Positions 3,537 to 61,655 are shown, numbered from the stretch's first letter. The stretch: DNA of 64,000 bases from an uncultured candidate division WWE3 bacterium (GCA_963765125.1 CAVXUZ010000004.1:128792-192791); one strand, 5' to 3'. A program made the numbers and translations. Notes: generated from the letters alone by a model not told the origin.

Positions 3537-4739
3537 TTATTGAGAAGTTTCTTTAGAGTCCAAATACGCAAGCCACATCCAAAATAGTAGGGCAGTTGAA
3601 ACCGTCGGCCAGCCAAAAATGTTTGTCACTGCAAAGCCAAAAAACCCTGCTTTTAGATAGACGTCGCTGCTTTTTAAATATTTGAGAATAATGAATAAAT
3701 AGGCTAGAAGGGCGAATACGCCAGATTCAACAGCTATTTCAAGAAAGTAATTATGAGGCTTATTTAATATAAAATCCCATTCCGACGAGTAGTTTAAAAT
3801 ATCTTCTCTAAAGAATGGATACTCGTAAGGAAAATTTTCAGGCCCTATACCGAGTAATACATTTTTTGGTGATGAAATAAACATTTTTGCACTACCCTTC
3901 CAAAGTCCTGTTCTAATCAAGCCAGAGTCTGATATGTTATAACTTTTTTGATCGCCGCTTAGATTTATCGCGTCGAGCACACGCTCCTTAAAAGGAGTAA
4001 GCATTAACCCAACCAACAATAAAACGGTAAATCCGGTAACAAAGGCTATTTTGATACTTTTTTTAATTTTTAGGCTCAATGCTACCACAGCCACCGCTGC
4101 AATAAATCCAAGCATTCCAGAAATTGACCGCGTTAAAAATAGACACCCAATTGATAAAACAACAAATAAAAACCAAAAGTATTTTTTGTATTTCTCTTTT
4201 TCAATAATAAAAAATCTTACAACCAGAGGTATACACATCACTAAGTATGCTGCTAACCAATTTGGTTGCCCAAAAGTAGAAAAAACCCGCGCGGTATCAA
4301 AAGCTTGAAAAATACCAAACAAGCTAATCGGCAAAACTCCCAAGGCAGCTGCTTCTAATAACACATTCATTTTTTCTTTATTAAAAAGATTAATGGCAAC
4401 TACGTATATTCCAAAAAAGATTAGGTAAGAAACTAAGCCACCATTAAATCTTGTGTAATACCCCCAAAGAGACGTGTGTAAATGGTTTGAAAATATAGTG
4501 GAAATTATTACTGTAGTAATAAAAATAGATATAGGTAAAGAAGGTTTTTTAAAATCACCAAACCCAAATAACAACCCTCTTAATAAATAGACGGTAATAA
4601 TCGTGGCACCAACAAAGTAGATAAAGTACATCTTCGGAAATTCGTAAACCTCAGAGGCTCCGAGACTAAACAGGAGCGGTGTTACAAATAACATTCCGAT
4701 AAAGAGAAAAAATAGTGTCTTAAATAAATTTTTTTTCAT
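3537..4739 (-). CDS. O-antigen ligase / Wzy_C family polytopic membrane protein
   Basis: It has about 10 predicted TM helices. The signature PHNYFLEIAVESGVFALLAY matches the HN..L....E.G motif of WaaL/PglL-type O-antigen ligases. Confidence 0.55.
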   Translation of the reverse strand: MKKNLFKTLFFLFIGMLFVTPLLFSLGASEVYEFPKMYFIYFVGATIITVYLLRGLLFGFGDFKKPSLPISIFITTVIISTIFSNHLHTSLWGYYTRFNGGLVSYLIFFGIYVVAINLFNKEKMNVLLEAAALGVLPISLFGIFQAFDTARVFSTFGQPNWLAAYLVMCIPLVVRFFIIEKEKYKKYFWFLFVVLSIGCLFLTRSISGMLGFIAAVAVVALSLKIKKSIKIAFVTGFTVLLLVGLMLTPFKERVLDAINLSGDQKSYNISDSGLIRTGLWKGSAKMFISSPKNVLLGIGPENFPYEYPFFREDILNYSSEWDFILNKPHNYFLEIAVESGVFALLAYLFIILKYLKSSDVYLKAGFFGFAVTNIFGWPTVSTALLFWMWLAYLDSKETSQ

Positions 4740-9145: not shown

Positions 9146-10699
9146 TTATCTAACTTTGGGCGTGTGATACAAATCCTTCATCTTTTTGCCAAACATCATT
9201 CTTGTTTGGGCGTCGATAAATGGAAAAAATGAGAAGGTAAGCAGGTTAACCATAATTGCGATTGCTTCAAAATTCATAATAACCTTTTTTATGAGTGGCC
9301 ACTCTTTTGGCATTGGAGGAGTCAACTTTGCTCTGTAGTAAGTCGGCGGAATGAGTAATATGAGTGTCAGGGTTAGAATAAAGCTCATCGTATCGGGTAG
9401 GCTGTATGCAAAACTACTTTGTTTAATAGATGGATTAACAAGAGTTAAAATAGCAAATCCAAAAGTTATTAGGTAAACCATGTTAAACATAATGATTCTT
9501 GTTTTTAAATGCGCGTAAATCCAAACTATTTTTTTAGAAAAAGCAATTTTTTTATTTTTTATAAATATTTTGAACGATAATGGAACAGAAATTGCGCCCC
9601 AACCCCATCTAAATAGCTGCTTATACAAACTTTTGTGCGAGTGTATAAAATCTTTTCCTTCAACAGCGTCTGCTGAGTAAGGTATGTAGTGCCCTGCAAT
9701 TTTAAAATTACCATCGCGAATATAAAAAGCTCTCCAGTAAAAAATGGTGTCGTCTACGCCAAGCTGTACATCCCAATAATCAATATCTATTAAAGTCTGT
9801 AAAGAGCTTGAATACGCAGCAAATGTATCTTTGGCCAATGAGCTTAACCCCCAAGGAATACTCCTCGTTGAAAGAATTCCTAAGGTTACAAAATTGGCCT
9901 CAATTCTTGCCATTGATTGAACACGCCAGTGATTGTTGTTAAAAAGACAAACTGCTGTTTGATAAAAGTGGTTATCACGACCATCGGTGGTTAAATATAA
10001 ATGTGTAAGCCTCGCCACATACTGTCTGTCTAAAATATGGTCTGCATCAAATGACGAAAAAATATAATTTCTCAAATCTCTACCAACTTCCTTCATATGT
10101 GCAATTGCGTGCTTTGCACCCCATGTTCTGTTTGCGCCTCCCACACCAATTGCTTCACCTATTATTCCTGCTGGGTGAACGTAATATAAAATCTCTTCAA
10201 AATTTTCTCTCTCTGCGTTTACCACTTTATCTAGATTCTCGATTGTTTCTTTTGAATATTTCTCTTCAATTGTAAAAACCAACGTCATAGATTTTGTGGG
10301 ATACGTTTGATCTGTAAAAGATTTAAAAGTGTCTCTCAATATGTCGTACGGTTCGTTCACAACAGGAATTAAAATCATGTGTCTAACGTCTTCTAGTGAG
10401 TTTGGAAGCGTGGCCTTGTCTGGGAGATCTTCAAAATTTAACGCATGACACTGCGCTGCCCAATCCTCAGCCATTTCATTTTTATATCTTGGGTAACCTA
10501 TTGCTAAACCTATGGTATTCATAAGCGCAAGATACGACCAATACATCGTAATAAAAGTCAAAAAGTAAACCATCGCCTGTGGGTACAGAAATCCCAACCA
10601 AATTGGCGATAAGATTGTTATCCACATCAATAGCCCCGGCAGTATTTCGAACAGGCGCTGTATTAACTTGTCGTGCTTCTCAAGCTCAATTGTTGTCAT
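9146..10699 (-). CDS. Family 2 glycosyltransferase, processive (cellulose-synthase-like) type
   Basis: It has N- and C-terminal TM segments, a DxD motif (FDADHILD) and a QxxRW motif (QLFRWGWG). Confidence 0.7.
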   Translation of the reverse strand: MTTIELEKHDKLIQRLFEILPGLLMWITILSPIWLGFLYPQAMVYFLTFITMYWSYLALMNTIGLAIGYPRYKNEMAEDWAAQCHALNFEDLPDKATLPNSLEDVRHMILIPVVNEPYDILRDTFKSFTDQTYPTKSMTLVFTIEEKYSKETIENLDKVVNAERENFEEILYYVHPAGIIGEAIGVGGANRTWGAKHAIAHMKEVGRDLRNYIFSSFDADHILDRQYVARLTHLYLTTDGRDNHFYQTAVCLFNNNHWRVQSMARIEANFVTLGILSTRSIPWGLSSLAKDTFAAYSSSLQTLIDIDYWDVQLGVDDTIFYWRAFYIRDGNFKIAGHYIPYSADAVEGKDFIHSHKSLYKQLFRWGWGAISVPLSFKIFIKNKKIAFSKKIVWIYAHLKTRIIMFNMVYLITFGFAILTLVNPSIKQSSFAYSLPDTMSFILTLTLILLIPPTYYRAKLTPPMPKEWPLIKKVIMNFEAIAIMVNLLTFSFFPFIDAQTRMMFGKKMKDLYHTPKVR

Positions 10700-26465: not shown

Positions 26466-26750
26466 TTGTCGAAAGACCATATTATGATTACATTATTAGA
26501 TTTTTATGCCGATTGGTGTGGCCCATGTAAAATTATGGAGCCAATCTTCAATGAACTTAAAAAAGAATATGAAGGCAGGGTTGAGTTTAAATCAGTCAAC
26601 GTTGAGGAAGAAAACGCCATGGCGATGCAGTTTGGCGTTAGAAGCATCCCAACCTTTGTAATTCTAAAAAATGAACAAGAAGTAGATAGAAAACTTGGTG
26701 CGATGCCAAAAGAAGTATTAACAAGTTGGTTAGATTCAAATCTTAAGTAA
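26466..26750 (+). CDS. trxA: Thioredoxin
   Basis: Active-site WCGPC is present. Confidence 0.85.
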   Translation: MSKDHIMITLLDFYADWCGPCKIMEPIFNELKKEYEGRVEFKSVNVEEENAMAMQFGVRSIPTFVILKNEQEVDRKLGAMPKEVLTSWLDSNLK

Positions 26751-26768: not shown

Positions 26769-27770
26769 ATGTCTGTCCGCATAGCAATAAACGGTTTCGG
26801 TAGGATTGGCCGAGCCTCATTCAAAATTATTCAAGAAACAGAAGGTGTGGAGGTTGTCGCAATCAACGACCTCACTGATTTAGAAACTTTAGCCCATTTA
26901 TTAAAATACGATTCAATTTACGGCCGTTACAGCAAAGAAGTAAAAATGGAAAACGGAAAAATGCTCGTTAATGGTAAGGAAATAGCCTTTTTTAGCGAAA
27001 AAGACGCAACAAAATTACCTTGGAAAGATTTAAATGTTGACGTAGTTTTGGAATGCACCGGAGTGTACGTCAAAGACAGTATGGCAAAAGTTCATCTAGA
27101 TGCGGGGGCGAAGAAGGTTATTTTGTCTGCGCCGGCAAAAGGCGATGGCGATATACAGACTTTTTTACGAGGAATAAACACCGACCAATATCTAGGACAA
27201 AACATAATTTCCAATGCTTCGTGCACTACACACAGTATTTCGGCCCCAATTTCAATTATTCACAATAATATCGGAATTAAAAAAGCGAGTCTTACAACAG
27301 TTCACGCAATGACCGCTTCACAGAAATTAACAGACAGCCCACACAAAGATTTACGCGAAGGTCGCGCAGCTTCATATAATCTTGTTCCAACGACAACGGG
27401 CGCAGCTATCGCTACCACACAAGCAATACCAGATCTTAAAGGCAAATTCGATGGGGTTTCAGTAAGAGTACCCGTTTCAGTCGGTTCACTTTCTATCATA
27501 ACTATGTTAGTAGCACGTCCTACCACTGTTGAAGAAATAAATCAGCTTTTTGTTGATGCAAAAAAAGATCCTAAATATAGCACAACATTAGATATAACCT
27601 TTGACGAGCTCGTTTCAACCGACATTATAGGAACAAACTACTCATCTATAGTAGATTTATCTCTAACATCTGTTGTAGACGGCGATATGGTAAGAATATT
27701 AGCTTGGTATGATAATGAATGGGGCTATAGTCATAGTCTGGTAGAGCTCGCAAAAACCATATCTGCGTAA
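26769..27770 (+). CDS. gap: Glyceraldehyde-3-phosphate dehydrogenase
   Basis: INGFGRIGR and SNASCTT are present and the C-terminal WYDNEWGYS is typical. Confidence 0.9.
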   Translation: MSVRIAINGFGRIGRASFKIIQETEGVEVVAINDLTDLETLAHLLKYDSIYGRYSKEVKMENGKMLVNGKEIAFFSEKDATKLPWKDLNVDVVLECTGVYVKDSMAKVHLDAGAKKVILSAPAKGDGDIQTFLRGINTDQYLGQNIISNASCTTHSISAPISIIHNNIGIKKASLTTVHAMTASQKLTDSPHKDLREGRAASYNLVPTTTGAAIATTQAIPDLKGKFDGVSVRVPVSVGSLSIITMLVARPTTVEEINQLFVDAKKDPKYSTTLDITFDELVSTDIIGTNYSSIVDLSLTSVVDGDMVRILAWYDNEWGYSHSLVELAKTISA

Positions 27771-27808
27771 ACACCAACGTGTGTCGGCGTGATAAAATAC
27801 CAGCATAA

Positions 27809-28075
27809 ATGTCTAAATCGCTAAAGGTATCATTTCCACAAAAATGCATAGGCTGCGAACTCTGTATTATGGAGGTTCAAAGGCAGTTTGAAAAAGTAGG
27901 CTTAGAGGGTGCCTTAATTAGAATATTTAAAAATAAAAGCGACAACAGTAACTTTTTAAAATTTTCCATCGATCTTGATCCAAGAATAAATAAACTAAAT
28001 TTAGAAAAGATTAGAGACTCTTGTCCAACTTTTGTATTTGAAATTATAGAGGAGGACCAAGGTGGACTTATATAG
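27809..28075 (+). CDS. Small single-cluster [4Fe-4S] ferredoxin-like protein
   Basis: CIGCELC (C-x2-C-x2-C) plus a distal SCP resembles CxxCxxC...CP mono-cluster ferredoxins. Confidence 0.45.
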   Translation: MSKSLKVSFPQKCIGCELCIMEVQRQFEKVGLEGALIRIFKNKSDNSNFLKFSIDLDPRINKLNLEKIRDSCPTFVFEIIEEDQGGLI

Positions 28076-28904
28076 CAAAAAGGTAGTGTTTGTTGATTTA
28101 GAAAAGCAGACATCAGAAACTAAAACTTTTCCTGACTATAAAAAATACTTAGGCGGCTTAGGTTTAGGTTTAAAAATTCTTGAACAATACGGCGATGTGG
28201 ACCCCTTAGTTTTTGCAGTTGGCCCTCTTACAGGGTTTTTTCCCTACGCTTCAAAAACTGCGGTTGTTATGGAAGAAGACGGAACTATCGAAGATATTTA
28301 TGTCGGTGGGCACCTCGCAACAAGATTAAAATTTTCAGATATAGATGCTCTTGTGCTCATCGGAAAAGCTAAAAAAGAAGTTTCTTTAGACATTTTAAAT
28401 GGTGAAGTAACTTTTTATGAAAACTGTGTGGAGTTGGGCACTTTAGGACTTCCAGGAAAAAGGTCAACGGTGCAGGCTATAGATAAATCTTTAATAATCG
28501 ATTATTACTTTGGTGAACCGGGGAGTTTAATAGCAAAAAAGCTTGTTCAAAAAAAAGTACGCGATATTGTCATTACAGGAACAAGCACCTTTACACCAGT
28601 ATTTATGGAAAAATATACAGAAATCTTCAAAATACTGCTCGATAAAACAAAACGTCTTTCGGTAGAAAAGGCTTTTTTTCCTTCTTGTTCGGGATGCCCA
28701 ATGGGGTGTGAAAAATCAAAATTGGGTGAAATCGGCGGAAATGTGCTACTACACTCACTCGTTGCGTGCGGTTACGCAGAAACTATATTTACCGATGTAG
28801 GAACCATCTTTTCATGCCTTAACTCTTTAGGTTATGATTATACTCACGAGGATATTGAAGCAGTACCTACCCTTATCCAAAATTTACTTAAAGAACTAAA
28901 ATAA
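28062..28904 (+). CDS. Truncated aldehyde:ferredoxin oxidoreductase (AOR) family protein: N-terminal domain plus the [4Fe-4S] C-x2-C-x3-C segment only
   Basis: The AOR N-domain signature VDLEKQTSETK...YLGGLGLGLKIL...DPLVFAVGPLTGFFPYASKTAVV...LKFSDIDALVLIGKAKKEVSL is present. Then CSGCPMGC aligns to the AOR cluster motif C-Y-A-C-P-I-G-C. The ~250-aa pterin-binding C-terminal domain is absent. Confidence 0.6.
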   Translation: MDLYSKKVVFVDLEKQTSETKTFPDYKKYLGGLGLGLKILEQYGDVDPLVFAVGPLTGFFPYASKTAVVMEEDGTIEDIYVGGHLATRLKFSDIDALVLIGKAKKEVSLDILNGEVTFYENCVELGTLGLPGKRSTVQAIDKSLIIDYYFGEPGSLIAKKLVQKKVRDIVITGTSTFTPVFMEKYTEIFKILLDKTKRLSVEKAFFPSCSGCPMGCEKSKLGEIGGNVLLHSLVACGYAETIFTDVGTIFSCLNSLGYDYTHEDIEAVPTLIQNLLKELK

Positions 28905-28905
28905 T

Positions 28906-29565
28906 ATGAAATACATTGTTGCAAACTGGAAAATGAATATGGACTCTAATTCGATTGCCAGTTGGTTTTCTGACTTTAGTAAAATCTACAAACCCAACGA
29001 AAATATTAAGGTAATAATATGTGGCTCGTTCGTACACCTTGAGTTAATTAAAAACTATATTGAAAAATACAATCTTCCTATTTCAGTTTCAGCTCAAGAT
29101 ATATCACTAAAAGAAAAAGGTGCACACACCGGCGAGGTGGGAGGATTTCAACTAAAAAATTATTGTGAATTTGCGTTGGTGGGGCATAGCGAAAGAAACG
29201 AAACCAGAGATGTTGTAACTAAAAAAAGAGACGAGGCTTTGGCTGCCGGGCTAATTCCAATAGTTTGTTTTACATCACCAGACCAACTTGAAGACGCCTA
29301 CAAACCGGGCGTGATTTTAGCTTGGGAAGACCCACAAAACATTTCTAAAAATGGTGTTTATTTTGAAAAGCCACAAGATGATATTGTCGATATGTTTAAT
29401 AAGTTTGCAGAAATGAAACCTAACGCAGAAATAATCTACGGCGGCTCTGTAAATAGACAGAATATTCACGGTGTCGCCAAAATATTAAACTTGCACGGAG
29501 TTCTACCTGGTAATGCAAGTATCGACCCCGCACATTTTAACGAGTTAGTTGGGGCGTTTAAATAA
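28906..29565 (+). CDS. tpiA: Triosephosphate isomerase (short form)
   Basis: ANWKMN and VGHSERN are the signatures. Confidence 0.75.
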   Translation: MKYIVANWKMNMDSNSIASWFSDFSKIYKPNENIKVIICGSFVHLELIKNYIEKYNLPISVSAQDISLKEKGAHTGEVGGFQLKNYCEFALVGHSERNETRDVVTKKRDEALAAGLIPIVCFTSPDQLEDAYKPGVILAWEDPQNISKNGVYFEKPQDDIVDMFNKFAEMKPNAEIIYGGSVNRQNIHGVAKILNLHGVLPGNASIDPAHFNELVGAFK

Positions 29566-42538: not shown

Positions 42539-42922
42539 ATGAATAATCTGCCTAATGACAACAATCAAACAAGCCAACTTGGGCAATCGAGTCTGGATCC
42601 TCGTTTTGTAGGCGGACCCGAGAGTGCACCAGAGATTACGCCACTTGCAGAGGAGGCAGCACCATCTGAAGAGCTTTTTTCGCTTGAAAACCTGAAAACT
42701 CCAGAAATACCAAAACAACAAGAAACCAAAGCACCAGTGGCTAATATAAACACGCCCTCTGCAAACGAACCTGTGTCCGATACCCAAGCAATAGTTGATA
42801 AAACCGAGAAAATAACACACCTACACCATATAGCTGGCACTAACGATAAACTTACTGAAGAGGCTGACGAAGAAGAGGAACATTTTATAGAGGAGGTTGA
42901 AAAACACCATGGTGACCTATAA
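42539..42922 (+). CDS. Acidic, low-complexity hypothetical protein
   Basis: The 127-aa ORF is Glu/Pro/Thr-rich and overlaps the next gene by 26 nt. Confidence 0.35.
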   Translation: MNNLPNDNNQTSQLGQSSLDPRFVGGPESAPEITPLAEEAAPSEELFSLENLKTPEIPKQQETKAPVANINTPSANEPVSDTQAIVDKTEKITHLHHIAGTNDKLTEEADEEEEHFIEEVEKHHGDL

Positions 42923-45341
42923 TAGTGTGGCGTCAAATCTGCAAACAAACCTAATGCCGTTATTTTTTATTATTTTTGCACTTGTGTTGCTGTGGATAAT
43001 CATAACTTTCAAAAGAAAAAGCAATGAGAAAGCAACCGAGTACAACCTTACTTTTCTTGAAGTTAAGCTTCCTAGCGATAATGAGATTGAGATCAGCGCT
43101 GCTGAACATTTATTTACAAATCTAATTGGTCTTAAAAAATCTTTTTGGGCATCTCTTATGTCTGGCCCGTACAGAATTTCTTTTGAAATTGTGTCAAAAA
43201 AAGAGGGGGTTGGGTTTTATGTTGTCGTTCCAGACGATTTGGCAAGCTACGTTGAACAACAAATAAATGGCGTATACCCTGGTGCTGAAATTGATATAGT
43301 AAATCCTGCTGAAATATGGGACAGAGGAAAGTTTACAAAAGTGGCTGAATTAAATTTTAAAGGCCCTGCATATTCACCAATAAAAATATATGAAGAAATT
43401 AAAACCGACCCATTAAGCTTAATTACATCTAGCATGAGCAAACTTTCAGAGAATGAGGTTCTTGCAATTCAATATGTAATATCGCCGGCAAGCGATGGTT
43501 GGAGAACGTCAGGTAGATCCTTTGTAAATAGCGTAAAAAATAAAATGGCCGACACAGAACGCCATTACAACGTTGATCAAAATTATCTTGAGGGTATAGA
43601 AAAAAAACTAGCTTACCCTGGCTTTAACACGGCAATTAGAATAGTTTCGATATCTGAAAATCAACAAACAGCGCAGCTACACATTAACAATATGATTTCT
43701 GGGTTTGAGCAATTTACAGATGTTGTTCACAATAAATTTGTAGTTAAAACATCGCTGCTGGGTAACTTTTTTCAAAAACATTTGATAAACAATTTTATAT
43801 ATCGCAAACTTCATCCAAAAGAGTTAACAATACCAATTTTAGGAATTAATTTTTACAGAAATGTTCCTGTTTTAAATGTCGTTGAGATGGCAACGATTTT
43901 TCATTTTCCAAATAAAAATATTCAAACTCCAAATATTATGTGGCTCAGCGCAAGAAGGTCTTCGGCCCCTACAAATCTTCCACTGCCTCAGGAGGGTATT
44001 TGGATTGGTGAAAGTTCATTCCGCGGAGTTAAAACACAAGTACACGTTAAAGAAAAAGATCGTACGAGACATTTTTACATTGTGGGACAAACTGGTACCG
44101 GTAAGTCGGAATTATTGAAGTTTATGGCACTTCAAGATATAAAAAACGGTGAGGGTGTTGCCTTAATTGATCCTCATGGAACTGACGTACAAGATTTGCT
44201 AACAAAAATTCCTCAAAACAGAATCGACGACGTCATATATTTTAACGTTTCCGACCTAGACATGCCTCTTGGACTAAATCTTTTAGAATGGGAAACAGAA
44301 GATCAAAAACACATCATTATTAATTCATTTATTGCGCTTTTGTATAAACTGTACGACCCGAATCATCAGGGAATTATGGGGCCACAGCTTGAGCGTGCAA
44401 TAAGAAATGTGATGCTCACAGCAATGGAAGACAAAGAAAGCACGATGGTGGATGTTTTGAGACTTTTGATTGATCCGAAATACGCGCAAAGATATATAGA
44501 TAAAATAAGCGACCCGTTAGTAAAAAGGTTTTGGGTTGATGAAATGGCAAAGACTTCGGATTTTCACAAGTCCGAAAAGATGGGGTACTTTGTTTCAAAA
44601 TTCGATAAGTTTGTCACAGATAAGCTTATGAGAAACATCGTTGGCCAACCAAAATCTGCGTTTAATTTTTCTCAAGCAATGGCGGAAAAAAAGATTTTGT
44701 TAGTTGATCTTGCAAAAGGAAAAATCGGTGAAGAAAACTCAAACTTTTTGGGATTAGTACTTGTTCCAAAACTACTATCCGCGGCTCTATCAAGGCACAC
44801 ACTAATTGAGAAGGGTATAGATTTTCCAAACTTTTATTTATACGTTGACGAGTTTCAAAATTTTGCAACACCGGACTTTGAAACTATCCTTTCTGAAGCA
44901 AGAAAATATAAATTGAACCTCATTGTTGCTCACCAATTTATTTCTCAACTCTCTGAAGAGATAAAAGACGCGGTGTTTGGAAACGTCGGTTCTATGTGCG
45001 CGTTTAGAACAGGCGTGGACGACGCAGAGTTTTTAGCAGAGTATTTTGAACCTACATTTTCGCAAAAAGACATCAGCAACTTAGCAGTAGGAAACGCGTA
45101 TGTAAGACTCCTTGTTGATGGACACCCAACGGCACCTTTTTCTATAAGTCTTCCTTGGAATGTGATTAGCACAAATGTGGAAAAAAGTCAGCAAACGGCA
45201 GATAAAATTCGTGAATCCTCACGACAAAAATACGGTGTGCCTGTAAACGAAGTTGAAACACACATTAATATGAGGATGGGCTTTAATGACCAAGCAGCTC
45301 AAAATCTTGAGGACCTGCCTTTGAAAAAGTTGCCGTTTTAA
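42897..45341 (+). CDS. Membrane-anchored TraD/TraG/VirD4-like (type IV coupling protein) AAA ATPase
   Basis: It has an N-terminal TM, Walker A (GQTGTGKSELLKF), Walker B / TraG-D_C-like (YLYVDEFQNF) and ARKYKLNLIVAHQFISQL. Confidence 0.65.
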   Translation: MKNTMVTYNSVASNLQTNLMPLFFIIFALVLLWIIITFKRKSNEKATEYNLTFLEVKLPSDNEIEISAAEHLFTNLIGLKKSFWASLMSGPYRISFEIVSKKEGVGFYVVVPDDLASYVEQQINGVYPGAEIDIVNPAEIWDRGKFTKVAELNFKGPAYSPIKIYEEIKTDPLSLITSSMSKLSENEVLAIQYVISPASDGWRTSGRSFVNSVKNKMADTERHYNVDQNYLEGIEKKLAYPGFNTAIRIVSISENQQTAQLHINNMISGFEQFTDVVHNKFVVKTSLLGNFFQKHLINNFIYRKLHPKELTIPILGINFYRNVPVLNVVEMATIFHFPNKNIQTPNIMWLSARRSSAPTNLPLPQEGIWIGESSFRGVKTQVHVKEKDRTRHFYIVGQTGTGKSELLKFMALQDIKNGEGVALIDPHGTDVQDLLTKIPQNRIDDVIYFNVSDLDMPLGLNLLEWETEDQKHIIINSFIALLYKLYDPNHQGIMGPQLERAIRNVMLTAMEDKESTMVDVLRLLIDPKYAQRYIDKISDPLVKRFWVDEMAKTSDFHKSEKMGYFVSKFDKFVTDKLMRNIVGQPKSAFNFSQAMAEKKILLVDLAKGKIGEENSNFLGLVLVPKLLSAALSRHTLIEKGIDFPNFYLYVDEFQNFATPDFETILSEARKYKLNLIVAHQFISQLSEEIKDAVFGNVGSMCAFRTGVDDAEFLAEYFEPTFSQKDISNLAVGNAYVRLLVDGHPTAPFSISLPWNVISTNVEKSQQTADKIRESSRQKYGVPVNEVETHINMRMGFNDQAAQNLEDLPLKKLPF

Positions 45342-45383: not shown

Positions 45384-46583
45384 TTGATGTTTAAACTGCC
45401 GTTTCTCAACAAGTCATTAAAAAAAGGTGCAAAATATCTAACGCTCGAATTGGGTTACGACTCGTTACGGGTGCTGTCTTTCTACAAAGAAGATGGAGCT
45501 ACCAAAATAATAGGGAGCGCAAAAGAGCCTGTTGAGCCGGGGTGTATTAGAAACGGCATCATAGTAGACATAAATGAAGTAATAGCTGCACTCGAAAAAG
45601 CAGTTACAAAAGCAACACTAAACATTGAGGATGATGTTGAAAATATTATCATTGGTGTCTCTAGCGATGTGTGTATCGAAAACGTTACAACCGCAAAAAT
45701 TACAAGAACTTCTACAAACCCGATTACTCAAAAAGAAATAGACGAGTTTGAGCAAAAACTTTTAGCGTCAGCGTATATTCAGGTGCAAAATAAGTTTGCA
45801 GAAAATACAGGAAACACCGAGGAAGATTTTCAACTAATAACCTCATCGCTGGTGCACGCAAAAATTGACGATAAAAAAATTACAACACTAAATAACCAAA
45901 AAGGCCAAATCGTTGAAATGGCAATGTACACTGCCTATTGCCCGGAATATTTTATTAAATCATTACAAAAAATGTGTAAATCCGTTGGTTTAAACATCTT
46001 AGCGATTGCGTCCGTTAATTTTGGTTTATTAAAAGGTTTGAAATCTACAGAAATGGAAAACACTGATCTTGTTACAATCAACATCGGTCCAGATTTTACA
46101 AACGTTGCGGTTGTCTTTGGTGGTGCAATTGTTGCCAGTAAAAGCCTGCATGTTGGTAAGAGACATTTAATTGAAGAGGTCGCAAGAAAAATGGGTTTGA
46201 CTGGTGAAGAGGCCGCAAACGTTGTAAACACGCATACTAGAGGCGAACTTGCGTCCAGCGAAAGCGTGGTTGTGCAAGACTGTATGGAAGAAGTTCTCAA
46301 TCTGTGGCTTGAGGGTGTGGAATTGGTATTTTCTGATTTTTCGGGTGTAAAGACATTTGCCCCGCATATCTACTTATTTGGAGTGGGTATAGAGATACCA
46401 GAGATTGAAGAAAAACTAAACAACAGTCCTTGGACAAAATCTATTCCATTCAAGGCGCCTCCTACATTACAATTATTACACTTTAGTGATTTACCAAAAA
46501 TCGCTGATGCAACTGGGGATATAAAAACAGATGAGTGGATTGGACCTGCCTCTCTTTCTTATATTTTTGAGGAGCTTATATGA
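45384..46583 (+). CDS. Actin-family ATPase, FtsA-like (a PilM-like alternative cannot be excluded)
   Basis: LTLELGYDSLRV...GCIRNGIIVDINEVIAALEKAV matches the FtsA/PilM fold pattern. A TG-TATAAT element ends 8 nt before the ATG, so the transcript is probably leaderless. Confidence 0.55.
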   Translation: MMFKLPFLNKSLKKGAKYLTLELGYDSLRVLSFYKEDGATKIIGSAKEPVEPGCIRNGIIVDINEVIAALEKAVTKATLNIEDDVENIIIGVSSDVCIENVTTAKITRTSTNPITQKEIDEFEQKLLASAYIQVQNKFAENTGNTEEDFQLITSSLVHAKIDDKKITTLNNQKGQIVEMAMYTAYCPEYFIKSLQKMCKSVGLNILAIASVNFGLLKGLKSTEMENTDLVTINIGPDFTNVAVVFGGAIVASKSLHVGKRHLIEEVARKMGLTGEEAANVVNTHTRGELASSESVVVQDCMEEVLNLWLEGVELVFSDFSGVKTFAPHIYLFGVGIEIPEIEEKLNNSPWTKSIPFKAPPTLQLLHFSDLPKIADATGDIKTDEWIGPASLSYIFEELI

Positions 46584-48115
46584 CAAAAATTGATATTGAA
46601 ATACATGACGATTTAATAAGTGTTATTGATAAACTAAAAAACATTAACGATACTGGCATTGAGCTCGTTGTTCCAGAAGGAGCTGTGCTGTTTGAAAACG
46701 TAATCAACATTAAAATGCTGAAGAATTGGGCTGACAAAGAAAGCAGAGTTATCACCTTTGTAACCGACGATGTTTATGGACAAAATCTTATCTTCTCGTT
46801 AGAAGAAGATGATTCCTCTAGTATGTTAGATGTTGATGAGGCAACCGATGACGCTGTGGAGCCGCGTAGTAGCAAAAAAATCATCATACCAAAAATAAAA
46901 TTGCCTAAATTGTCATTCAAAAAGGGTGGATTAGTTTATTTTGGTGTAGGTATATTGCTTGTAGGTACCGGTTTATTTTTCGGGTATAGGCACTTGTCAA
47001 CAGCGCCCCAAGCGTATATTAGAGTTGTTGTTAATTCCCAACCGCTAACCAAGAGCCTAGAGATAAAGGTTAAAAGTGGTGCTACTACAAACGTGGAAAA
47101 TAAAGTTCTCGCCGGAGAAACATTAGAAGTTTTAGTAGAAGAAAAACTCTCGGCACCAACTACAGGTGAGAAAATTGTAGGTGAAAAAGCTACAGGTACC
47201 ATAACAATATTTAACAAAACTGATACAGAGAAGAAATTTAAAAAAGGTACAGATATAATTTATGAAGACGATAAAGATAAGGAGTACATTTACGAGATAA
47301 CTAAAGATGTCACTGTACCTCCAAGAGAAGAGCAAGCTCCAGACCCAGAGGATCCAGACACAATCACCTACATTAAAGGTAAGGCAGACGTAGAGGTTGA
47401 GGCGTCTGTAGTGGGAGAAAAATATAATTTAGATGCGGGTGAAACACTTTCGGTAGAAGACCAAAAAACTACCGCGTTTGACGCTGAAATTAAAGAAGAC
47501 ATCGAGGGTGGAAAAGAAGAAAAAATCAAGGTTGTAGCACAAAAAGATATTGATGATTTAAAAGCAAAAATACTAGAAAACGCGAAGGAAAAAGCTATTA
47601 GAGCGTTGGAGTCCGCGGTAGCTGGTGATAAGAAAAAAATTAGCGGTTCCGAGTCTGTAATTGCAACCAAGGAGTCTCTTAGCCATGTATTAGACGCTGA
47701 GACAGAGGAGCTAACTCTAGAACAAACATACTCTGCCAAAGGTCTGTTATATAAACCTTCTGAATTAGACGCTGCAATAGACAAAATGGTTGTTGATCTT
47801 GTGCCAGAAAATTATGTGCTCTCAACAAAAGAGCGAGTTCTTAATGTAGAGGTTCTAGGTAATACGGATTCTACGGTCTTATCCGACTCGGAGGCTGACC
47901 TACAAGTTACGTTAAAAACATATGTTGTTTCGGATATTTCTGAAGACACAGTTAAGGATGCTGTATTAGGAAAAAATGTAGCCGAGGCTCAAAAATATGT
48001 TGGTGGTATTAGAAATATTAAAACCTACGAATTTAGCATAAAGCCACGATACCCATTTTTTGATTCCGTACCCAAGGACAAGAGCCGTATAAACATTGTT
48101 ATCGAAAGAGAATAA
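46580..48115 (+). CDS. Hypothetical bitopic membrane protein with a large acidic extracytoplasmic domain
   Basis: It has one TM near residue 125 and is translationally coupled to the upstream gene. Confidence 0.45.
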   Translation: MTKIDIEIHDDLISVIDKLKNINDTGIELVVPEGAVLFENVINIKMLKNWADKESRVITFVTDDVYGQNLIFSLEEDDSSSMLDVDEATDDAVEPRSSKKIIIPKIKLPKLSFKKGGLVYFGVGILLVGTGLFFGYRHLSTAPQAYIRVVVNSQPLTKSLEIKVKSGATTNVENKVLAGETLEVLVEEKLSAPTTGEKIVGEKATGTITIFNKTDTEKKFKKGTDIIYEDDKDKEYIYEITKDVTVPPREEQAPDPEDPDTITYIKGKADVEVEASVVGEKYNLDAGETLSVEDQKTTAFDAEIKEDIEGGKEEKIKVVAQKDIDDLKAKILENAKEKAIRALESAVAGDKKKISGSESVIATKESLSHVLDAETEELTLEQTYSAKGLLYKPSELDAAIDKMVVDLVPENYVLSTKERVLNVEVLGNTDSTVLSDSEADLQVTLKTYVVSDISEDTVKDAVLGKNVAEAQKYVGGIRNIKTYEFSIKPRYPFFDSVPKDKSRINIVIERE

Positions 48116-49850: not shown

Positions 49851-51236
49851 ATGGAAGAAAAAATAAACAACCAGGAACAACTGAATGCCTTCTGGAAGAA
49901 GGTTTTGGGAATTTTACAAACCGAACTTAACCCTATGACCTACAATACGTGGGTTACTAAAATTACTCCCGGCAACATTACAGACACCAGCCTCGACCTT
50001 ATAGTTGAGGTTTCTTATGCAAAAAAGCAGCTACAAAAATATTCTTCACTTATTGAAGACGCTATAAAAAGGGTTGGTAAAGTAGATAGAAAAATTAATT
50101 TCGTAATAGATAAGTTAGAAACAACAAAAGATAAAGATCCTATTGGTCCCTTGTTTGATCTAGAAAAACCCAAAAAATCCGAGGTTAGCGAAGCAGCATT
50201 TAGAAAAGCTGGTATTTCACCTAAGTTTACTTTTGAGAATTTTATTATAGGTAACAGTAATCAGCTTGCGTTTGCTATTGCACAAGCAGTCGCTGAAAAT
50301 CCTGGACAGAGTTATAATCCGTTTTTTCTCTACGCGGGTGTAGGTTTAGGAAAAACTCACCTTGTACAGGCTGTTGGAAACAAAATTCTACAAAATAACC
50401 ATAAACTAAATGTTATTTACACAACTGGCGAATCGTTTATGAACGAGCTAATTGAGGCCATACAGAGCGGGAATCGCGGTAAATACGCTTCAAATGAGTT
50501 TAGAAATAAATTTAGACACGCCGATGTTCTCATCATTGACGATATTCAATTTATTATTGGAAGGGAATCAACACAGTTAGAGTTTTTTCACACGTTCAAC
50601 GCTTTGTACATGGCGGGAAAACAAATCGTTTTAACTTCTGATAGGCCACCAAAAGACTTTGTTAATTTAGAAAAAAGAATCACTTCAAGATTCGGGAGCG
50701 GAATTATCGCTGATATTCAAACGCCAGACGCGGATCTAAGAAATGCAATCCTCAGAACCAAAAGGGATCTTGAGAAAGGTACTGTGCCTAACGACGTCAT
50801 CGATTTTATTGCAAAAAATGTTGAATCAAATATTAGAGAATTGGAAGGCGCTTATATTCAGGTCGCCGCTTTTGCGAAAAGCCAGGGCCAGCCGGTCTCC
50901 GTCGAGCTCGCAGAAAAAGTTCTTGGAAAAAATATAGTTGTTGGAAGAAAAAAAATTGTGACTCCTAGCGAAGTAATAAAAGCCGTAAGTAAGTATTATG
51001 ATGTTAATGTTGGTGATTTAAAAGGTCAGAGAAGAACCAAAGAAATAGTGCTCCCAAGACAAGTTGCAATGTATCTTATTCGCGAACTAACCGATGCACC
51101 TCTTATGGGTATAGGCGAACAGCTCGGGGGGAGAGACCACACAACTATAATGCACGGAATTAAGAAGGTAGAGGAAGAGATGCAAGAGATGGGAAGAGTG
51201 AGACAAGATGTTGTTAATGTAAAACAATTACTTTAA
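49851..51236 (+). CDS. dnaA: Chromosomal replication initiator DnaA
   Basis: AAA+ Walker A is GVGLGKTHL and the C-terminal DNA-binding motif is DHTTIMHGIKKVEEE. Confidence 0.9.
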   Translation: MEEKINNQEQLNAFWKKVLGILQTELNPMTYNTWVTKITPGNITDTSLDLIVEVSYAKKQLQKYSSLIEDAIKRVGKVDRKINFVIDKLETTKDKDPIGPLFDLEKPKKSEVSEAAFRKAGISPKFTFENFIIGNSNQLAFAIAQAVAENPGQSYNPFFLYAGVGLGKTHLVQAVGNKILQNNHKLNVIYTTGESFMNELIEAIQSGNRGKYASNEFRNKFRHADVLIIDDIQFIIGRESTQLEFFHTFNALYMAGKQIVLTSDRPPKDFVNLEKRITSRFGSGIIADIQTPDADLRNAILRTKRDLEKGTVPNDVIDFIAKNVESNIRELEGAYIQVAAFAKSQGQPVSVELAEKVLGKNIVVGRKKIVTPSEVIKAVSKYYDVNVGDLKGQRRTKEIVLPRQVAMYLIRELTDAPLMGIGEQLGGRDHTTIMHGIKKVEEEMQEMGRVRQDVVNVKQLL

Positions 51237-59335: not shown

Positions 59336-61655
59336 ATGATCGAAGAAAAAAAAGACTACATTGAATCTAATATGGCTAAAAAATATGTTCCTACTGAGGT
59401 TGAGCCCAGAATCTATAAAATGTGGGAAGACTCAGGTTTTTTCAAAGCTAAAATAGACCCGAAAAAGAAACCATACACAATAATTCTTCCTCCCCCTAAT
59501 TCAAATGGAAAGCTTCATGTTGGTCACGCGCTGATGCTGGCAATAGAAGATTTACTAATTAGATGGAAAAGAATGCAAGGATTCTCAGCTCTATGGCTAC
59601 CCGGAACCGATCATGCAGGATTTGAAACACAAGTAGTTTACGAAAAAGAATTAGAAAAAGAAGGAAAATCGCGTATGGATTTTGATCGCGATACGCTCTA
59701 CAAAAGAATTTTTAATTTTGTTAAGGAACAGGGTGCAGTAATTCTCGATCAGACAAAAGCTTTAGGTCCAAGTCTCGACTGGTCGCGTTATACATTTACA
59801 CTCGACGAGCACGTAATCGATACCGTGTACAACACATTCGAAAAAATGGCAAAAGAAGGTTTAGTTTATAGAAACGACTACATTGTAAATTACTGCACGA
59901 GACATAACACAACTCTTTCTGACCTCGAGCTTGATTACAAAGATCAGAAAACCAAGCTCTACTACATTAAATATTATCTTGTAGACAAGAGCAAAAGATG
60001 AGCCAGAATATGTTGTTGTAGCAACCACAAGGCCAGAACCAATCTTTGCTGATACCCACCTTGCTGTAAATCCAAAAGACAAAAAGAACAAATGGCTTGT
60101 AGGTAGAAAACTTTTAAATCCTCTAACCTCAGCAGAGATGGAAGTAATTGAAGACTCATTTGTTGACCCCAAGTTTGGAACAGGAATTGTTAAGATGACC
60201 CCCGCCCACGACAAGACCGACTTTGAAGTCGCAGTAAAACATAAGTTACCGATAATTTCTGCGTTCGGTACAGACGGAAAAATAAACGATAGGGGAGGAG
60301 AGCTCGCAGGACTTTATGTAACAAAGGCGAGAATAAAAGCCGAGGAGATTTTAAAAGAAAAAGGTCTTATAGAAAAAATTGATGAGAACTATGAAAACAG
60401 CATTGCGATTTGTTACAAGTGCGGAACAGTAATTGAACCAATCGTTCTTCCAAACTGGTTTGTAAAAGTAGAGTCATTAAAAAAAGCTGCACACGACGCC
60501 GTAAAAAAAGGTCATGTAAAAATTTATCCAAAATGGCAAGAAATAAAATATCACCGATGGATGGAAGAAATGCGCGATTGGCCTATTTCAAGACAGATTA
60601 TCTGGGGTATTCAGCTTCCTGTTTGGTATGACGTTAAAGCAACACCTAATATTCAAGCAACCTTTATCGCAAATGATGGACAAAGAGTGTCCGGAAAGGT
60701 TGGTGAGCTGTTAGCAAATCACCAACTAGAAGAAATTGAAAAAGGACTTCAGACGTTAATCGCACCCAAAGATGCAAAATATGTAATTTCAAAAGAAAAA
60801 CCTGCAAAAGGAGAATTTTTACGAGAAACCGATACATTTGATACTTGGTACAGCAGCGGGCATTGGCCGCTAGTTACGCTTAACTACCCAAAAAGCGAAG
60901 ATTTTAAATATTTTTATCCCACGTCAGTATTAGAGACGGGTTGGGAAATTTTAAGGTTTTGGGTAAGCAGAATGATTATGTTTGGTATTTACCTTACAGG
61001 AAAACCGCCGTTTAGCGAGGTTTACTTGCATGGGCTAGTTCGCGCCGAAGACGGTAAGAAAATGAGCAAAAGCTTAGGTAATCAAGTAGACCCAATCGAC
61101 ATGGTTAAAGAATACGGTGCCGACGCACTAAGGCTCGGTTTGATTTCAGGCACCTACAATGGAAAGGATTTTGCTTTTCCAAAAGACAAGGTAATCGCGT
61201 TTCGAAACTTTTCAAACAAGTTGTGGAATATGGCCAGGTTTATCGACATTATGGTTACTAAACACACTAGTGAGGGTGGTTACGAAAATGAAAATCATCA
61301 ACCCAAAATAAAACCGCTTGATGAAGTAAAACATAATTTAAATGACGAAGATAAAACGCTGCTTTCTGATTTAGATAGACTAATAAAAGAGACTGATGCA
61401 AATCTTGAAAAATATAGGTTTGCAGATGCCGCAGAAAATTTGTATCACTTTGTATGGGAAAGACTCGCAAGCCAGTACATCGAAAGTGTAAAAGCACGCA
61501 CCGACCAGGGAGTCGCTCTGTCTGTATTAATTCACGTATTTAAAACATCATTAAAACTGCTTCACCCATTTATGCCGTTTGTAACAGAAGAGATCTGGAC
61601 AAATATGAAAGATGAGAACGAAGTCGCGCTGATTGTTACCGAGTGGCCAAAGTAA
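59336..61655 (+). CDS. valS: Valyl-tRNA synthetase, split into two ORFs (59336..60001 and the continuation from ~59985) by a single-base frame change in an A4 run at 59993-59996
   Basis: HIGH-region PPPNSNGKLHVGHA is in the first ORF and KMSKS (KKMSKSLGN) in the second. Removing one A from 59993-59996 yields a continuous YYLVDKSKDEPEYVVVATTRPEPIFADTHLAVNPKD, as in intact ValRS. Confidence 0.85.

Follow-up and report, generated by a model that had tools for sequence, protein, structure and literature searches.

The subject of this work is a pair of small genes in a 64,000-nt stretch of DNA from an uncultured candidate division WWE3 bacterium (GCA_963765125.1 CAVXUZ010000004.1:128792-192791). 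We refer to the whole 64-kb stretch as the window, and the listing of open reading frames (ORFs), the profile searches, and tblastn were run on it. The first gene, fd, encodes an 88-aa ferredoxin-type protein, and the second, termed mini-AOR, encodes a 280-aa relative of aldehyde:ferredoxin oxidoreductase (AOR) that is a real, conserved, and apparently undescribed variant of a known protein family. A preliminary description of this DNA had placed the two genes between gap and tpiA with a 14-nt overlap, and the four ORFs were found at those coordinates and in that order, as were the CxxCxxC...CP motif reported for the smaller protein and the C-x2-C-P-M-G-C segment reported for the larger one. 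The genes and signals of the locus are as follows.

26466-26750, plus strand: thioredoxin gene (trx), at the head of the conserved cluster trx-gap-(pgk)-fd-mini-AOR-tpiA
26769-27770, plus strand: gap, type I (phosphorylating) glyceraldehyde-3-phosphate dehydrogenase (GAPDH); TIGR01534 384.5 bits against a cut-off of 367.2, Pfam Gp_dh_N and Gp_dh_C
27790-27799, plus strand: TGATAAAATA motif similar to an extended -10 element, located 19 nt upstream of the fd start codon and present once in the window
27809-28075, plus strand: fd, 88-aa small iron-sulfur protein with C13-x2-C16-x2-C19 and C72-P73
28050-28055, plus strand: Shine-Dalgarno sequence AGGAGG, read from the sequence, inside the 3' end of fd and 6 nt before the GTG start of mini-AOR
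28062-28904, plus strand: mini-AOR, 280 aa; Pfam AFOR_N, no AFOR_C
28906-29565, plus strand: tpiA, triosephosphate isomerase (TPI), 219 aa; Pfam TIM, 129 bits
29565-30638, plus strand: LytR-CpsA-Psr family gene; Pfam LytR_cpsA_psr on orthologous genes, tblastn

The trx call is based on a WCGPC motif recognized by eye and on the Thioredoxin Pfam match of an 88-aa gene at the same position in the Logan assembly ERR15459710, and the homologous gene has a Pfam Thioredoxin match in the related loci L001, L002, and L006. The catalytic Cys/His and the phosphate-site Thr/Arg of GAPDH are seemingly intact, as judged by eye. The gap and fd genes are separated by 38 nt, fd and mini-AOR overlap by 14 nt (28062-28075), tpiA starts 1 nt after the mini-AOR stop codon, and the LytR gene overlaps the tpiA stop by 1 nt. 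A 20.8-kb contig of the Logan assembly, which is independent, has the same gene order and encodes identical proteins, and the assembly break that the preliminary description had considered is therefore unlikely. In most related loci the fd stop codon lies between -17 and +1 nt of the mini-AOR start, and this, together with the AGGAGG sequence 6 nt upstream of that start, suggests that translation of mini-AOR is coupled to that of fd. We favor the start at 28062 over the later one in the public annotation (P0001, 272 aa) because residues 1-8 are conserved in the family and K6 is invariant.

The mini-AOR and fd protein families

In Pfam the 280-aa protein matches AFOR_N with 78.7 bits (E = 6.5e-22; cut-off 29.8), which bears out the AOR N-terminal domain and the family assignment made earlier, and it has no AFOR_C match even at E ≤ 1. 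For the comparison with AOR, residues 7-564 of the Pyrococcus furiosus enzyme (1AOR) were rebuilt from HMMER alignments, with C288, C291, C295, H448, K450, D489, and C494 at their expected numbers. By joint alignment and profile-profile comparison, three collinear pieces of AOR are kept in mini-AOR.

28068-28649, plus strand: residues 3-196, complete AOR domain 1 (beta-sandwich); hhalign probability 100%, E = 2.3e-47
28650-28727, plus strand: residues 197-222, cluster loop P-S-C209-x2-C212-P-x-G-C216; hhalign probability 77%, E = 2e-5
28716-28901, plus strand: residues 219-280, kept piece of domain 3; hhalign probability 97.3%, E = 1.8e-11 to residues 435-496 of the full-length relative P0164

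In the first piece, which hhalign aligns to residues 3-218 of the full-length form, Lys65 takes the position of 1AOR Arg76, and G82-G83 that of G95-G96. The cluster loop, which in the window reads C209-S-G-C212-P-M-G-C216, gives a collinear HMMER match to 1AOR 287-299, and its three invariant Cys are equivalent to C288, C291, and C295. The domain-3 piece carries C236, equivalent to C494, the fourth cluster ligand of 1AOR, together with an invariant C252 and the motif Y-D-Y-T-H-E-D, and the spacing from the Cys to LG[WY]D is ungapped and the same as in 1AOR 494-514. Hence C209, C212, C216, and C236 align to C288, C291, C295, and C494, and they are invariant in 32/32 family members. The AlphaFold2 (AF2) model of mini-AOR has a mean predicted local distance difference test score (pLDDT) of ~76-97 over most of residues 1-180, with values in the 60s near 51-70 and 181-200, and a Foldseek search of the PDB with this model returned AOR-family enzymes alone (E ~1e-11 to 1e-12).

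What is missing from mini-AOR corresponds to 1AOR residues ~230-283, ~302-482, and the last ~65 residues, and the ~180 residues deleted at ~302-482 include E313, D338-x2-G-L-D343, H448, and K450. T243, E313, Y427, and H448 are given as pterin-coordinating or catalytic residues (PMC13328260), and all such residues lie within the deleted segments save R182, the position of which is occupied by Phe in 11 of 12 tabulated mini-AORs and by Ile in the other. Because the last 62 residues are homologous to an AOR domain-3 segment and the order is collinear, the alignments indicate that mini-AOR is internally deleted and not C-terminally truncated. The truncation put forward in the preliminary description therefore stands as far as the missing pterin core and the absent AFOR_C domain are concerned, but the loss is internal, with domain 1 complete and a domain-3 segment retained according to hhalign. 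An insertion of tpiA that truncated an AOR gene was considered and rejected, given that mini-AOR keeps this collinear segment. Judged from its residues, mini-AOR keeps everything needed for a [4Fe-4S] cluster on domain 1 and nothing for the pterins, and it is predicted to bind the cluster. On the same grounds, it cannot act as an aldehyde or glyceraldehyde 3-phosphate (G3P):ferredoxin oxidoreductase in the known way, because the tungsto/molybdopterin-binding, aldehyde-oxidizing core (~180 residues) has been lost.

A search of 5.8 billion proteins gave 335 mini-AOR homologs. The best 120 of these are all 272-296 aa long, cover the whole query, and have 48-62% identity to it, and those among the best 120 that carry a source name are assigned to candidate division WWE3 or Patescibacteria. 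An exhaustive hidden Markov model (HMM) search of 1.84 billion cluster representatives yielded 46 mini-AOR clusters at 50% identity (E ≤ 1e-30), the complete members of which are almost all 276-302 aa, and beyond these clusters the HMM scores step down to full-length proteins of 538-604 aa. Relatives of mini-AOR are also encoded on 138 metagenome stretches. The family alignment contains 48 invariant positions, five of them Cys (C209, C212, C216, C236, and C252). Among closely related loci the median ratio of nonsynonymous to synonymous substitution (dN/dS) is 0.039 for mini-AOR, 0.048 for fd, 0.041 for gap, 0.055 for pgk, and 0.078 for tpiA, where dS is ~1, so that the absolute values are approximate and the comparison between genes is fair.

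These data bear on the possibility, raised in the preliminary description, that the gene is a decaying and functionless remnant of an AOR or GAPOR gene. In favor of such a pseudogene, the product is half the normal length without an AFOR_C domain, and one metagenome copy has an in-frame stop and a C252S substitution. We reject this explanation, which we regard as extremely improbable, because length is uniform in hundreds of orthologs, the 48 residues (including the cluster cysteines) are invariant, and dN/dS (~0.04) is level with that of the flanking glycolytic genes and as low as that of GAPDH; in addition, there are no frameshifts, the Shine-Dalgarno sequence is strong, and the independent assembly agrees. 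The comparisons thus indicate that mini-AOR is a conserved, selected family rather than a truncation or a pseudogene. The exceptional copy, which is one of 80 metagenome loci (L056, 1006-1845 of contig Ga0272443_10022375), has a single stop (...LKLY(stop)LYQ...) and Ser in place of the invariant Cys252, and it is either a decaying copy or the result of a sequencing error.

From the related loci, 63 unique fd orthologs were extracted. The CxxCxxC motif is present in 81 of 82 extracted fd ORFs, the exception being a 5'-truncated call, and the distal Cys is present in all 82 and is followed by Pro in 78. In 35 aligned orthologs M1, C13, C16, C19, C72, and P73 are invariant, and 30 of the 35 have a Pfam Fer4 match, while the best family member reaches E = 2e-5 with Fer4_13. 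The CxxCxxC and CP motifs are ~52 residues apart, and by direct count fd has 13 basic and 13 acidic residues. We propose with moderate confidence, on the basis of these motifs, that fd is a ferredoxin-type partner or subunit with a single [4Fe-4S] cluster. That the 88-aa ORF is a gene-calling artefact was rejected, as the N-terminal part with CxxCxxC is conserved in the orthologs. Gene callers often miss or shorten fd, which is uncalled in L173 (~3858-4101) and called as 68 aa without CxxCxxC in the Logan assembly, and automated surveys will therefore under-report it.

Full-length relatives and the gene neighborhood

The nearest full-length relatives of mini-AOR, and the closest full-length matches to its profile (102-131 bits), are P0164, P0165, P0166, P0168, P0169, P0173, and a 542-aa ORF in L091, a metagenome-assembled genome named candidate division WWE3; they are 538-554 aa in length. 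Their genes occupy the slot between gap or pgk (the UvrD/gap/pgk side) and LytR-holA-sortase, which is the syntenic anchor common to the window and these loci, and they are usually accompanied by the same fd. None is followed by tpiA. Their AFOR_C domain is weak, with 48-92 bits compared with 179 for a canonical AOR. A comparison with 11 canonical AORs showed that residues shared by most or all of the latter have been lost from them: R182 has become F, H, Y, or S, in place of the acidic residue at position 338 there is N, L, Y, H, F, or W, and R444 has become G, S, A, or E. Since these full-length syntenic forms are already without the canonical residues, decay of the pterin site appears to predate the domain deletion. 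Mini-AOR descends from a full-length form in the same slot. To call it a relic, as had been suggested earlier, is therefore plausible in the evolutionary sense that sister lineages have a 538-554-aa AOR-like gene in the same slot, but those forms had themselves already lost canonical residues. The architectures differ as follows in the presence of the protein's own cluster Cys and of an upstream fd.

Mini-AOR (window and related loci): own cluster Cys, yes; fd upstream, yes
P0164 (L009): own cluster Cys, yes; fd upstream, yes
L091 ORF: own cluster Cys, yes; fd upstream, yes
P0166 (L010): own cluster Cys, yes; fd upstream, yes
P0173 (L172): own cluster Cys, yes; fd upstream, no (pgk abuts the AOR-like gene by 17 nt)
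P0165 (L008): own cluster Cys, no; fd upstream, yes
P0168 (L171): own cluster Cys, no; fd upstream, yes
P0169 (L173): own cluster Cys, no; fd upstream, yes (uncalled ORF)

Every architecture in this small sample of eight architecture classes keeps at least one 4-Cys site. Specifically, P0165, P0168, and P0169 have lost all four cluster Cys and each has fd upstream, and in the case of P0169 the fd gene was predicted beforehand and then found as an uncalled ORF. C252 is not at the mini-AOR position in any full-length form; P0164 has a Cys three residues upstream. The lineages without cluster Cys have a reverse-strand ABC-transporter/DUF4340 cassette (L008 4784-5686, L171 3517-7650, and L173 2-3919, all minus strand). 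This cassette lies between gap and the fd-AOR pair; in L173, the contig of which does not reach gap, it immediately precedes the pair. The sequence available for the L008, L171, and L173 loci yielded no pgk.

The neighborhood of mini-AOR itself was surveyed in the 80 metagenome loci, which were found with the mini-AOR profile and mapped by tblastn. Wherever at least ~150 nt of sequence precedes mini-AOR, the adjacent upstream gene is fd, and wherever sequence follows mini-AOR, the next gene is tpiA, with LytR-holA-sortase beyond. Farther upstream there is usually trx-gap, and in most loci that extend far enough trx immediately precedes gap. In ~70 related loci the order is trx-gap-pgk-fd-mini-AOR-tpiA, with pgk directly upstream of fd and encoding a compact product of 320-334 aa. 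Because these ~70 loci carry pgk directly beside the same pair, the pair is an insert between pgk and tpiA and is not a general substitute for pgk. Compact size is a feature of WWE3 PGKs, since nearly all of the best 120 of 7,976 profile matches are 319-334 aa (range 310-348), where the typical PGK length is ~390-400 aa, and by eye they keep the usual PGK motifs (e.g., L001 4748-5749 and L004 4746-5714). The tpiA product in the window is also short and divergent, scoring 73.5 bits against a cut-off of 130.6 in NCBIfam TIGR00419 and matching Pfam TIM in two pieces, and after the catalytic Glu it reads A-W-E-D-P-Q-N-I-S-K-N-G in place of the usual loop-6 P-V-W-A-I-G-T-G, as do relatives such as L001.

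In the window tblastn with two WWE3 PGKs (E ≤ 10) did not find pgk, and gap is followed directly by fd both there and in L006/L007, L011, L012, L013, and L015. In a domain-1 tree these pgk-less loci form a single clade nested among loci that have pgk. The TGATAAAATA motif, for which we infer promoter function, lies ~19 nt before the fd start in every gap-to-fd spacer (24-44 nt) of this clade, and in loci that have pgk it precedes pgk, at the same spacing in L024, L026, and L036 and at a shorter spacing in L022 and L001. Because fd in the pgk-less clade adjoins a motif that is found ahead of pgk in other loci, it would appear that the pgk ORF was cleanly excised from the operon in one subclade, with TGATAAAATA marking the scar, as a separate and secondary event. 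The view that the pair occupies the place where pgk normally lies is thus correct insofar as pgk is absent here, but the impression is due to this clade-specific excision. As PGK is reported to be essentially universal in the candidate phyla radiation (CPR; PMC7304191), our default expectation is that pgk has been relocated and is probably elsewhere in the genome.

Proposed role of the pair and its alternatives

We consider it probable, from the comparative sequence data, that fd and mini-AOR form a conserved two-protein iron-sulfur module that is specific to WWE3 (Katanobacteria, Patescibacteria), has lost the pterin core, and is linked to ferredoxin. In the proposed scheme, a pair of fd and a full-length AOR-like protein, with its pterin site already decayed, would have been present beside gap/pgk in ancestral WWE3. 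In the present form fd and mini-AOR would each bind a [4Fe-4S] cluster, would be co-translated and associate with each other, and electrons would pass between the fd cluster and the mini-AOR cluster, with the loss of the pterin domain leaving one face of the latter exposed to a new partner. The module would be co-expressed with thioredoxin, GAPDH, (PGK), and TPI, and this co-expression suggests that it may link to or sense the ferredoxin pool where glycolysis passes through the triose phosphates. A ferredoxin pool is present in the WWE3 lineage, since pyruvate:ferredoxin oxidoreductase (PFOR) and hydrogenase have been reported in a complete WWE3 genome (PMC3812714). The earlier suggestion that a novel mini-AOR works with the adjacent ferredoxin is thereby supported at least to the extent that the two are a conserved and selected pair, with hundreds of orthologs, invariant Cys, dN/dS of ~0.04, and fd always upstream.

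Several observations weigh against this proposal. The fd protein of the window scores below all Pfam cut-offs (Fer4 E = 0.016, Fer4_13 E = 0.035), and the fd profile has marginal matches only in the PDB (E 0.02-2), among them the Fe-S subunits of WOR5, the Aromatoleum aromaticum AOR, and a bifurcating WOR. The AF2 model of fd is weak (pLDDT 56.5), with the order beta-alpha-beta-beta-alpha-beta, and a Foldseek search with it gave nothing significant (best E 0.1), while that of mini-AOR is poor over the Cys-rich residues 201-268 (pLDDT < 50). Co-transcription of the operon would follow from gene spacing alone, and a promoter/terminator scan was uninformative, with counts near the shuffle expectation. 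To these are added the in-frame stop in the L056 copy and the three syntenic full-length relatives that have no internal cluster; should all forms share one function, domain 1 rather than redox chemistry may be its main basis.

The last point leads to a rather unlikely alternative, in which mini-AOR is a non-catalytic structural, regulatory, or sensor protein, domain 1 binds a glycolytic enzyme or another partner, and the Fe-S cluster stabilizes the fold or senses oxygen, iron, or redox state without metabolic electron flux. The syntenic forms all have domain 1 and nothing else in common, decay of the pterin site appears to have preceded loss of the domain, strong purifying selection acts on a protein with no recognizable active site, and the balanced charge of fd, which is not acidic as typical soluble ferredoxins are, fits a bound subunit. 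Conversely, every architecture has at least one 4-Cys site, the cluster Cys are invariant in the mini-AOR family, and dedicated ferredoxin-type partners are more usual in electron transfer. By analogy with ferredoxin:thioredoxin reductase, which has a [4Fe-4S] cluster next to redox-active cysteines, electrons might instead pass from fd to the mini-AOR cluster and C252 and from there to the operon thioredoxin or to an oxidized Cys of GAPDH, a classic thioredoxin target. It is the case that trx heads the cluster in most loci and that C252 is invariant in the mini-AOR family and absent from canonical AORs and the full-length forms. This route to ferredoxin-dependent thiol/disulfide reduction is nevertheless very unlikely in our judgment, as mini-AOR has one extra Cys only compared with the disulfide pair of ferredoxin:thioredoxin reductase, there is no sequence or fold similarity to that enzyme, trx is not adjacent in all loci (e.g., L004), and the full-length forms are without C252.

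The preliminary description had also considered a GAPOR-type bypass. In a working bypass of this kind the pair would oxidize G3P, or process 1,3-bisphosphoglycerate, with ferredoxin and make PGK dispensable, and new, pterin-independent chemistry would be needed. The pair consistently lies amid gap, pgk, and tpiA, the operon in the clade of the window and the window itself are both without pgk, a bacterial two-subunit WOR that oxidizes G3P is known (the GOR of Caldicellulosiruptor bescii; PMC13328260), and the former cofactor-facing loops of domain 1 are highly conserved (K65, G82-G83, R88, and the basic L-P-G-K-R-S). All the same, we assign very little probability to the bypass and find no support for it as a replacement for PGK: pgk is directly beside the same pair in ~70 related loci, the pterin-binding core with catalytic E313 and H448 is deleted, the phosphorylating GAPDH is kept, and pgk is probably elsewhere in the genome given its near universality in CPR (PMC7304191). 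Moreover, the NCBIfam model GAPOR_Arch (NF040818) has no match to the 280-aa protein at E ≤ 1 and gives at most 29.5 bits with the syntenic full-length forms, against a cut-off of 1300. In a version of this idea that is just as improbable, the pair would be a pterin-independent Fe-S enzyme acting on a phosphorylated C3 intermediate, which would have let one WWE3 subclade, to which this genome belongs, discard PGK altogether in spite of its supposed universality in CPR. The old pterin-phosphate pocket of domain 1 would then bind the substrate beside the exposed [4Fe-4S] cluster, and an example of the reaction would be the ferredoxin-linked interconversion of G3P or 1,3-bisphosphoglycerate and 3-phosphoglycerate. 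If it were true that the pgk-less subclade has no PGK genome-wide, this would contradict current views of CPR glycolysis. Overall, the pair is most likely a ferredoxin-linked Fe-S module and not a GAPOR.

The rest of the window contains housekeeping genes, including those for MetRS, RmuC, an AddA-type helicase-nuclease, LepA, DnaK, DnaA, MurT, TsaD, adenylate kinase, and HrcA, and no genes for cofactor biosynthesis, PFOR, or TrxB were found among the window ORFs scanned. The dnaA gene is at 49851-51236 (plus strand), which makes it probable that the chromosomal replication origin is in or next to the window. A class I aminoacyl-tRNA synthetase of the Ile/Leu/Val/Met type is split between two plus-strand ORFs 136 nt apart, one of 221 aa (59336-60001) that covers positions 2-184 of Pfam tRNA-synt_1 and one of 505 aa (60138-61655) that covers positions 184-411 and the anticodon-binding domain; the gene may be truly split, may contain an intervening element, or may be frameshifted. 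Three large ORFs have no Pfam match at E ≤ 1e-5, namely 45384-46583 (plus strand, 399 aa), 46580-48115 (plus strand, 511 aa), and 9146-10699 (minus strand, 517 aa), and the first two, which are preceded by a HerA/TraG-like ATPase (42897-45341), could be part of a mobile cluster or of one related to secretion.

Comparison with known systems

The prevailing view of the WOR large subunit is that its structure is invariant and that it strictly depends on pterin, and the 2026 classification of >4,000 WORs, which describes very little variation in the large subunit, makes no mention of Patescibacteria (PMC13328260). That classification demanded both the N and the C domain, and proteins like mini-AOR therefore fall outside it. 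In the literature we found no description of a reduced AOR form, nor of AOR or GAPOR in WWE3, Katanobacteria, Patescibacteria, or CPR; 'a ferredoxin oxidoreductase-like protein' is listed among the WWE3 electron carriers by Kantor et al. (PMC3812714). The mini-AOR family indicates that the AOR/WOR scaffold can lose its whole cofactor domain, keep domain 1 and the Fe-S cluster ligands, and stay under selection as strong as that on GAPDH, and that such retention spans a class-level lineage of ultra-small bacteria. The GAPDH-PGK-TPI module, within which the pair is located, is considered the only metabolic module common to all CPR, and for this reason we view the pair as a conserved component of CPR core energy metabolism. 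Automatic annotation of the protein as 'aldehyde:ferredoxin oxidoreductase', as in JGI names, could mislead reconstructions toward a capacity for aldehyde or acetate reduction that it cannot possess, and mini-AOR is better not classed as an aldehyde or G3P oxidoreductase.

Compared with the large subunits of AOR and the WORs (1AOR; FOR, 1B25; WOR5, 6X1O), mini-AOR has a homologous domain 1 and the four [4Fe-4S] Cys positions, and it shares with 1AOR a basic residue, here Lys, at the R76 position, the G95-G96 pair, and the collinear order of the segments that are kept. It differs in being 280 aa rather than ~600, in the deletion of the residues for both pterins and of E313/H448, in the replacement of R182 by Phe, and in the extra invariant C252. 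By its domain 1 and cluster ligands mini-AOR is accordingly placed in the AOR/WOR superfamily, from which it departs in the pterin domains and catalytic residues. The nearest canonical AORs carry generic source names and no GAPOR or GOR label. The full-length forms of WWE3-related genomes are distinguished from mini-AOR in that a weak AFOR_C is kept, tpiA is not the next gene, three of the seven are without cluster Cys, and C252 is absent.

The fd protein resembles single-cluster ferredoxins (Fer4_13 and Fer4_15; P. furiosus ferredoxin) in its C-x2-C-x2-C...C-P arrangement, its length (~80-90 aa in these proteins), and the beta-alpha-beta-beta-alpha-beta order predicted from the weak model. 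P. furiosus ferredoxin is the physiological partner of AOR. The sequence similarity of fd to these ferredoxins is marginal, fd is not acidic, and it is always encoded directly upstream of, or overlapping, an AOR-like gene, an arrangement more suited to a dedicated subunit than to a general carrier.

As a pair, fd and mini-AOR are like the Class II WORs (WorL and WorS), in which a small Fe-S gene also lies beside a large-subunit gene of the WOR family. WorS has four [4Fe-4S] clusters in ~150-190 aa, whereas fd has one 4-Cys site in 88 aa, and the matches of the fd profile to WOR5-S, AorA, and the Fe-S subunit of 9MQX are non-significant (E 0.2-2). In contrast to WorL-WorS and GAPOR, the pair has no pterin domain and has GAPDH alongside it, and PGK as well in most relatives. 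Its tie to the G3P step, as in the C. bescii GOR and archaeal GAPOR (Class I), is here by gene context alone. Among functional precedents for a small Fe-S gene and a WorL gene that are together tied to glycolysis, the nearest is the C. bescii enzyme, a bacterial, glycolytic, and G3P-oxidizing GOR of two subunits (WorL and WorS; PMC13328260).

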